Shown piece by piece: positions 60,572 to 60,607 of a stretch of DNA of 64,000 bases; the stretch's first letter is position 1; the number at the start of each line of letters is the position of its first letter. The DNA is from Rhodocyclaceae bacterium (GTDB lineage Bacteria; Pseudomonadota; Gammaproteobacteria; Burkholderiales; Rhodocyclaceae). Made by a program: the position numbers and the translations under genes. Below the pieces are notes generated by a model that saw only the letters and a program-made list of their open reading frames with translations, did not search any database and had not been told where the DNA came from. Location of the stretch: positions 1,194 through 65,193 of the forward strand of contig JBGOZF010000019.1 in assembly GCA_041480065.1 (NCBI GenBank), read 5' to 3'.

Positions 60572-60607
60572 ATTCTAGGTTGACGTTGACGTCAACGTCA
60601 ATATATC
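60572..60607 (-). promoter_or_regulatory. Candidate LiuR-regulated promoter: perfect 22-bp palindrome TTGACGTTGACGTCAACGTCAA occupying the -35 to -10 spacer, with a TAGAAT -10
   Basis: In operon orientation the sequence reads TTGACG-(18 nt)-TAGAAT-(about 20 nt)-AGGAGGGGG-ATG. The palindrome sits at 60580-60601, between the MerR/LiuR stop and the thioesterase start. Confidence 0.45.

Follow-up and report, generated by a model that had tools for sequence, protein, structure and literature searches.

The 22-bp palindrome in front of the liu (leucine/isovalerate utilisation) genes of an uncultured Rhodocyclaceae-like betaproteobacterium, together with the MerR-family gene beside it, is by sequence comparison an instance of the known LiuR system in a host that is new and uncultured. 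In our preferred reading, to which we give a probability of roughly 0.7, the palindrome is a LiuR operator (a LiuR box, named the "ILV box" in PMC7238569) that would occlude a near-consensus sigma-70 promoter of the liu operon, with relief by a leucine-related signal. The original prediction had taken the palindrome for an operator over the liu promoter and the neighboring MerR-family gene for its cognate regulator, and comparative conservation upholds this assignment, with LiuR as the regulator.

LiuR was defined by comparative genomics as a MerR-family regulator of branched-chain amino acid catabolism (Kazakov et al. 2009, as cited in PMC3223726). The LiuR collection is curated in RegPrecise (PMC2808921, PMC3840689), and reconstructions of LiuR regulons cover about 103 genomes from 15-16 proteobacterial groups (PMC5343134). 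The window (the whole 64-kb stretch of DNA that was analyzed) resembles the LiuR regulons of Shewanella, Pseudomonas, and Vibrio in having a MerR-family regulator of ~135 aa beside liu genes and a palindromic box. In those regulons, the box lies 5′ of liu, ivd, and etf genes and serves a repressor, according to PMC3223726, PMC5343134, and PMC8871633. The window differs from them in its host, in its extended box (a 22-bp perfect palindrome with three cores), in a liuR gene without an upstream box of its own, and in an operon that is led by a hotdog thioesterase.

The palindrome (TTGACGTTGACGTCAACGTCAA; positions 60580 to 60601) is a perfect inverted repeat of 11 plus 11 nt with zero loop, so its description as flawless was accurate. 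No second copy was found in the 64-kb window with up to 3 mismatches allowed, and neither a pattern search nor a position weight matrix (PWM) scan of the window returned further LiuR boxes; weak matches to TGACGTNNACGTCA with 2 mismatches are intragenic and look like chance occurrences. Specifically, no box was found upstream of the window liuR itself. The palindrome had been placed directly downstream of the regulator gene: it is indeed downstream, but a gap of 27 nt separates it from the regulator's TAG stop (60631 to 60629). On the other side, 25 nt separate it from the thioesterase start of the minus-strand operon. Read along the minus strand, the region is gatata-TTGACG-TTGACGTCAACGTCAA-CC-TAGAAT-cccggcc-AGGAGG-gggc-ATG.

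The genes 3′ of the box are tightly packed on the minus strand, and this run of genes is the liu cluster. The first gene encodes a hotdog-fold (PaaI-like) thioesterase (60093 to 60554; TIGR00369 above cut-off, Pfam 4HBT), whose stop is overlapped by 4 nt by liuA (58924 to 60096), encoding an isovaleryl-CoA-dehydrogenase-like ACAD. The function of liuA is assigned by context, and its relatives in syntenic position show 73 to 84% identity. Downstream follow an acetyl-CoA C-acetyltransferase (thiolase) gene (57588 to 58769; NF005404, 715 bits, above cut-off) and a gene for an EamA-family transporter (56695 to 57705; Pfam EamA), whose listed TTG start overlaps the thiolase gene and whose true start is uncertain. 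A second short/branched-chain acyl-CoA dehydrogenase (55562 to 56698; profile matches) precedes a DSBA-like thioredoxin-fold protein (54941 to 55543; Pfam DSBA, 2e-41), a gene type also present in the liu cluster of Rhodospirillum rubrum (PMC7238569). The remaining minus-strand genes encode the methylcrotonyl-CoA carboxylase (MCC) beta subunit, i.e., the carboxyltransferase (53333 to 54940; Pfam Carboxyl_trans, 9e-158), an enoyl-CoA hydratase resembling methylglutaconyl-CoA hydratase (52535 to 53323; profile matches), and the MCC alpha subunit (50519 to 52528; biotin carboxylase domains and BT_MCC_alpha). The MCC-alpha gene closes the same-strand run, as the next open reading frame is convergent. 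A metallo-beta-lactamase-fold gene and a gene for a PhaC polyhydroxyalkanoate (PHA) synthase are located upstream of the regulator gene, in divergent orientation to it.

The regulator gene (60629 to 61039, minus strand) encodes a protein of 136 aa with Pfam matches to MerR_1 (1.6e-16, 60.6 bits), MerR-DNA-bind (52.7 bits), and MerR (43.2 bits), all above cut-offs, which confirms that it carries the MerR helix-turn-helix read from the sequence earlier. The NCBIfam matches (ZntR, CueR, MerR, and HspR) are all subthreshold. The best PDB relatives, namely, MerR, TipA, and CueR, are distant (E about 1e-7), and the PDB search returned no solved LiuR structure. The closest homologues come from metagenomes and Rhodocyclaceae metagenome-assembled genomes (MAGs), the best metagenome protein match having 96% identity and the best genome match 77%. 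We considered the cysteine C118 as a possible sensor residue and rejected it: the residue is invariant in the 24 closest homologues but is conserved in just 86% of the 81 aligned sequences (the window regulator plus those of the 80 genome loci described below).

For the comparison across genomes, 80 betaproteobacterial loci were collected by means of a LiuR alignment, and the window was added as the 81st locus. The gene order liuR-(thioesterase)-liuA-thiolase is shared by the majority of the 80 genome loci. In 58 of the 81 loci, the motif TTkACGTTnACGTnAACGTmAA occurs 0 to 190 nt from the liuR stop, between liuR and the gene that follows it, a count that, like the others given here, overstates independence because phylogenetic relatedness links many of the loci in the comparison. 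The three ACGT cores, as well as the TT and AA on either side, are essentially invariant, with variation limited to positions 3, 9, 14, and 20, and the exact window palindrome recurs in three other loci (L009, L021, and L023). In other clades, 16-bp or 22-bp boxes are found 5′ of liuR and again 5′ of liuA.

A metagenome scan with TTGACGTTNACGTNAACGTCAA yielded 120 loci, and about 110 of these occurrences flank liu or other acyl-CoA catabolism genes. At 71 of the 120 sites, liuR, the thioesterase gene, or liuA is at most 400 bp away. Most of the other sites precede genes for MCC-beta, the DSBA-like protein, thiolase, an IcmF-type fused B12 mutase (20 sites), a 258-aa short-chain dehydrogenase/reductase (SDR) (10 sites), or etfB (3 sites). 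The survey of related genomes for box copies near liu and MCC genes, which had been proposed along with the palindrome, thus returned copies in both data sets. The same result contradicts the description of site and regulator as a self-contained switch, since elsewhere the same box stands 5′ of IcmF-type mutase, SDR, etfB, and MCC-beta genes and is therefore part of a regulon.

Outside the betaproteobacteria, a tblastn search found a protein encoded on Vibrio campbellii chromosome 2 with 52.5% identity to the window regulator over 118 aa. Its gene is flanked by a divergent operon of ivd type (thiolase, ACAD) on one side and by liuA-MCCb-ECH on the other, and liuR has been located at that ivd/liu intergenic position in V. 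campbellii (PMC3858670), although the strain in that paper differs from the one compared here. The V. campbellii ivdA-liuR intergenic region contains TTGACGTTTACGTAAG and TTTACGTAAACGTAAA, ACGT-core boxes of the same type. On the strength of the genome, metagenome, and Vibrio comparisons, the window regulator is identified as a LiuR orthologue and the palindrome as its LiuR box.

We then consider where this box lies relative to the promoter. The promoter scan predicts a −35 element TTGACG (60596 to 60601, minus strand), which equals the first six bases of the conserved box, and a −10 element TAGAAT (60572 to 60577), of which TAnnnT is kept in orthologous sites. With its 18-bp spacer, this pair matches the consensus at 10 of 12 positions in a consensus promoter scanner. 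The palindrome covers the −35 element and 16 of the 18 spacer bases, so the claim that it fills the spacer holds for most of the spacer, but not for all of it, as the last two spacer bases (CC) fall outside. A Shine-Dalgarno sequence (AGGAGG, 60559 to 60564), recognized from the sequence, lies 4 nt 5′ of the thioesterase ATG (60554 to 60552), and the predicted promoter would imply a transcript leader of only ~10 to 11 nt.

To see whether orthologous sites share this arrangement, 57 nonidentical orthologous sites were anchored on the 22-mer, and a downstream TAnnnT was sought. The motif lies 1 to 2 nt past the box in 27 of the 57 distinct sites: at an offset of 1 nt in 15 sites and of 2 nt in 12, where the −35 is the first box hexamer and the spacer is 17 and 18 bp, respectively. 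A further 16 sites have TAnnnT at an offset of 7 nt, where the second hexamer (TTTACG) serves as the −35 and the spacer is again 17 bp; no other offset in the range of 0 to 12 nt is seen at more than 1 site. Offsets 1 and 2, the layout of the window, belong to Rhodocyclales and some Burkholderiales MAGs, and offset 7 belongs to Oxalobacteraceae, in which the box is shifted 6 bp upstream relative to the promoter. The TAnnnT after the box is kept although the sequence around it has diverged. In several relatives, the thioesterase ATG lies 6 to 7 nt past the predicted −10 and is not preceded by a Shine-Dalgarno sequence; this leaderless spacing lends independent support to the hexamer as a −10. 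The predicted −35 and −10 elements of the liu operon promoter are thus well supported, and the earlier reading of TTGACG, an 18-nt spacer, and TAGAAT is backed by both the promoter scan and phylogenetic footprinting.

How LiuR would act at this promoter can be outlined as follows. The TTGACG-18-TAGAAT promoter would drive an operon of ~10 kb, from the thioesterase gene through MCC-alpha. The 22-mer offers two overlapping 16-bp registers, of which LiuR dimers would fill one or both; bound LiuR would extend over promoter positions −36 to about −15 and keep RNA polymerase out. Bound LiuR would probably also block read-through from liuR as a roadblock, an effect that is likely because the scanner found no minus-strand terminator between liuR and the box. 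In the presence of metabolites derived from leucine or isovalerate, a putative effector would free LiuR, and the intrinsically good promoter would fire. Since the spacers are 17 to 18 bp and the hexamers are near consensus, such promoters should function unaided.

The placement of the box at other promoters of the regulon bears on this mechanism. At the SDR promoters, a conserved cATAA stands directly 5′ of the box, giving a CATAAT that ends at box position 1, and the liuR promoters of Bordetella and Achromobacter read catcATAA-TTTACGTTTACGTAAA. Sites upstream of liuR in Oxalobacteraceae and some Burkholderiales contigs have a TACAAT, with the box beginning 3 to 10 nt later. The box therefore takes at least three placements relative to the predicted promoter, namely, 1 to 2 nt before the −10, 7 nt before the −10, and right after a −10-like hexamer. 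For the last of these, no convincing −35 hexamers were found at the SDR and liuR-upstream promoters, and the reading of a box after the −10 rests on the −10-like hexamers. A protein bound to a box in that position would cover the start site, so that a regulator there can only repress, and induction would have to involve the release of LiuR. If LiuR is released at the SDR and liuR-upstream promoters, the same should hold at the liu promoter. LiuR is termed a repressor in Shewanella and diverse proteobacteria by PMC3223726, and likewise by PMC8871633, which reports Diaz-Perez 2018.

It had been proposed that an operator within the spacer is the hallmark of MerR-type activation by promoter distortion. 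LiuR would then act like MerR, CueR, or BmrR, staying bound in the spacer, where an acyl-CoA effector would let it untwist and bend the DNA, bring the −35 and −10 elements into alignment, and turn on transcription; as the apo form, it may also repress. We regard this as unlikely, although several features of the window fit it. The regulator belongs to the MerR family, the palindrome begins at the −35 and occupies most of the spacer, and the 18-bp spacer is one base over the optimum and hence slightly suboptimal. The inner register (60580 to 60595) is also nearly centered in the spacer, ~10 bp upstream of the −10, and the canonical operator center at the merT and copA promoters lies ~11 bp upstream of the −10. 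Canonical MerR-activated promoters, however, have suboptimal spacers of 19 to 20 bp with the palindrome inside (PMC8113463, PMC1526738), and among the 57 distinct orthologous sites, none places TAnnnT such that the spacer would be 19 or 20 bp long. If a 17-bp spacer were untwisted, the promoter should become weaker, not stronger. Furthermore, the position of the box varies by clade and operon and includes sites downstream of the −10, where distortion cannot act. With spacers of 17 to 18 bp and never 19 to 20 bp, a variable box position, and a literature that calls LiuR a repressor, the hallmark argument is not supported.

Compared with the individual systems, the window shares with MerR/merT, CueR/copA, ZntR/zntA, and BmrR/bmr the regulator fold family and a long palindrome between or over the −35 and −10 elements. 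It differs in the spacer (19 to 20 bp in those systems, 18 bp in the window, and 17 to 18 bp in its orthologues), in a LiuR box whose position varies between promoters, and in an effector of LiuR that is not a metal or drug. HspR, GlnR/TnrA, and CarH/LitR are MerR-type winged-helix repressors that act on promoter-overlapping operators, and their signals and operator sequences differ from those of LiuR. The similarity of the window regulator to HspR is weak (E = 6e-10, below cut-off), as is that to GlnR (PDB search, E about 1e-5).

To describe the box itself more closely, we examined its internal repeats. The composite LiuR box, which has no strand of its own, contains three ACGT cores 6 bp apart, and the 22-mer consists of two perfect 7-2-7 sites of the form TTGACGT-NN-ACGTCAA offset by 6 bp. 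The upstream 16-bp subsite (60586 to 60601, minus strand), a perfect 7-2-7 inverted repeat (TTGACGT-TG-ACGTCAA), includes the −35 element, and the second (60580 to 60595, minus strand; TTGACGT-CA-ACGTCAA) lies wholly inside the spacer. Lone 16-mers of the subsite form are present at other LiuR-associated promoters, both the 16-mer and 22-mer forms are widespread among the compared loci, and one locus (L075) has a four-unit version. The 22-mer could be read as a whole site for one dimer, as a choice of registers for one dimer, or as a site for two dimers on opposite faces. The 6-bp offset of the two 16-bp sites corresponds to about 200 degrees around the helix. That the 22-mer represents two overlapping LiuR sites bound simultaneously by two dimers on opposite DNA faces, or that LiuR both represses and activates at promoters with an 18-bp spacer such as this one, seems to us quite doubtful, and we know of no pair-of-dimers binding mode described for the MerR family.

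The occlusion of an internal promoter by LiuR, our preferred reading, also has to be weighed against the possibility that no such promoter exists, that transcription comes from upstream of liuR, and that the box acts as a LiuR roadblock only. The missing terminator between liuR and the box would fit this arrangement. So would the position of the liuR TGA stop, which in many loci lies inside the first TTGACG of the box, so that liuR transcripts must enter the box there. The arrangement would resemble the liu genes of Pseudomonas aeruginosa, described as a liuRABCDE unit (PMC8871633). On the other hand, the TAnnnT right after the box is kept amid diverging sequence, the −35 and −10 hexamers are near consensus, and some relatives have a leaderless-type spacing that speaks for transcription starting just past the box, all of which make a roadblock without an internal promoter distinctly improbable. 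A roadblock does not preclude an internal promoter, and the two can coexist.

Another reading, that the palindrome works in RNA as a 3′ stem-loop that terminates or stabilizes the liuR transcript, is very improbable. A 9-bp hairpin can form, and the 71-nt region folds at −23.1 kcal/mol (z = −2.4). The hairpin is, however, followed on the minus strand by CCUAGAAUCCC and not by a U-tract; a scan of this strand found no GC-rich stem with a U-tract that would make an intrinsic terminator of liuR, and the single terminator-like call is for the plus strand, which has no gene ending there. In orthologues, the pairing is often lost at the variable positions 9 and 14 (for instance, where G faces A in TTGACGTTGACGTAAACGTCAA), whereas the ACGT cores stay invariant, which points to conservation of the sequence and not to compensatory change. 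The element is also found 5′ of unrelated genes that have no preceding liuR.

The palindrome per se is only modestly unlikely by chance, as 11 of 200 composition-matched windows (~5%) simulated under a first-order Markov model held a perfect palindrome with arms of at least 11 nt; the case for its function comes from context and conservation. Chance is ruled out by the retention of the element at the same location across dozens of genomes, and the reading of it as either a chance palindrome or the site of another factor, be it of the FNR/CRP type or a CRE-like TGACGTCA binder (the palindrome center includes TGACGTCA), has next to nothing in its favor, given its regulon-wide occurrence beside branched-chain acyl-CoA genes, its co-occurrence with liuR, including at autoregulatory positions upstream of liuR, and a half-site spacing that does not match the FNR/CRP-type TTGAT-N4-ATCAA.

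The finding neither opens nor settles long-standing questions, and its value is practical. Of mild interest are the composite architecture of the 22-bp box and the effector of LiuR. More generally, a palindrome within a promoter spacer beside a MerR-family gene does not by itself indicate MerR-type distortion, and the spacer length and the consistency of the operator position should be checked. Metagenomes from wastewater and groundwater commonly contain the Rhodocyclaceae-like lineage, and a PHA synthase gene is also part of the window. The compact regulator-operator pair is a candidate leucine- or isovalerate-responsive part, and its recognition makes a confident annotation of the liu operon with its promoter and regulator possible in an uncultured Rhodocyclaceae-like genome.

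In many relatives, the stop codon of liuR, the MerR-family regulator gene, is the TGA contained within the first TTGACG of the LiuR box, the 22-bp palindromic putative operator (loci L006, L007, L011, L012, L016 to L018, L020, L021, L040, L044, L057, and others). The liuR coding sequence therefore overlaps both its own putative operator and the predicted −35 element of the next promoter. Two boxes stand in tandem between liuR and the thioesterase gene in L022 (4402 to 4467), L024, and L041, with start-to-start distances of about 38 bp; the first box overlaps the liuR stop codon, and the promoter-like layout falls on the second. 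An extended box of four hexamer units, TTGACGTTAACGTCAATGTCAACGTCAG, is present about 90 nt upstream of liuR in L075. As the box is palindromic, the predicted liu promoter of the window has a mirror image on the plus strand (TTGACG-18-TATCGT, 60580 to 60609, a 9/12 promoter-like match) directed into the 3′ end of liuR, which could be an antisense start or a mere by-product of the symmetry of the box.

The predicted promoter implies a leader of only about 10 to 11 nt for the thioesterase gene in the window. In L008, L014, L061, and L069, only 6 to 7 nt separate the predicted −10 element from the thioesterase ATG, and no Shine-Dalgarno sequence precedes this ATG. Together, the short spacing and the missing Shine-Dalgarno sequence suggest that the thioesterase mRNAs of these four loci are leaderless.

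Further along the operon, the N terminus of the thiolase (MQDPIVIVSAARTPMGGFQGDF...) is duplicated in a 26-codon open reading frame, MSDPIVIVSAARTPMGGFGCGRRFAA* (58833 to 58913, minus strand), which lies between liuA and the thiolase gene, with the thiolase start 62 nt further on. The DNA of this short frame is about 76% identical to the start of the thiolase gene over the first ∼55 nt, and the differences are mostly at third positions. The short frame appears to be what remains of the 5′ end of another thiolase gene after a replacement or rearrangement. The EamA transporter frame (56695 to 57705, minus strand) is listed with a TTG start that falls 118 nt inside the thiolase gene, and its real start is therefore probably further downstream. 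An exporter-type gene such as this one is unusual within a liu operon, yet its presence is conserved among several relatives (L007, L014, L017, L018, and L020).

On the other side of liuR, a divergent gene for a metallo-beta-lactamase-fold protein with Lactamase_B and B_lactamase-like_C domains (61166 to 62182, plus strand) begins 126 bp away, and this gap contains no LiuR box. In the metagenome locus L108, a gene that shares this domain pair (1692 to 2819) lies downstream of a 22-bp LiuR box at a distance of 38 nt, and in some genomes the family may therefore be part of the LiuR regulon. The second gene upstream of liuR in the window encodes a class I-type PHA synthase (62196 to 63992, plus strand; PhaC_N and alpha/beta hydrolase domains).

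Among the metagenome loci, the commonest non-liu neighbor of the 22-bp box encodes an IcmF-type fused B12-binding/MeaB/methylmalonyl-CoA-mutase protein of roughly 1,100 amino acids (L082, L083, L093, L098, L102, L123, L127, L129, L136, L144, L150, L155, L198, and seven more). The box lies 12 to 68 nt upstream of the start of the IcmF-type gene, which points to LiuR control of an isobutyryl-, isovaleryl-, or pivalyl-CoA mutase in the bacteria that carry these loci.
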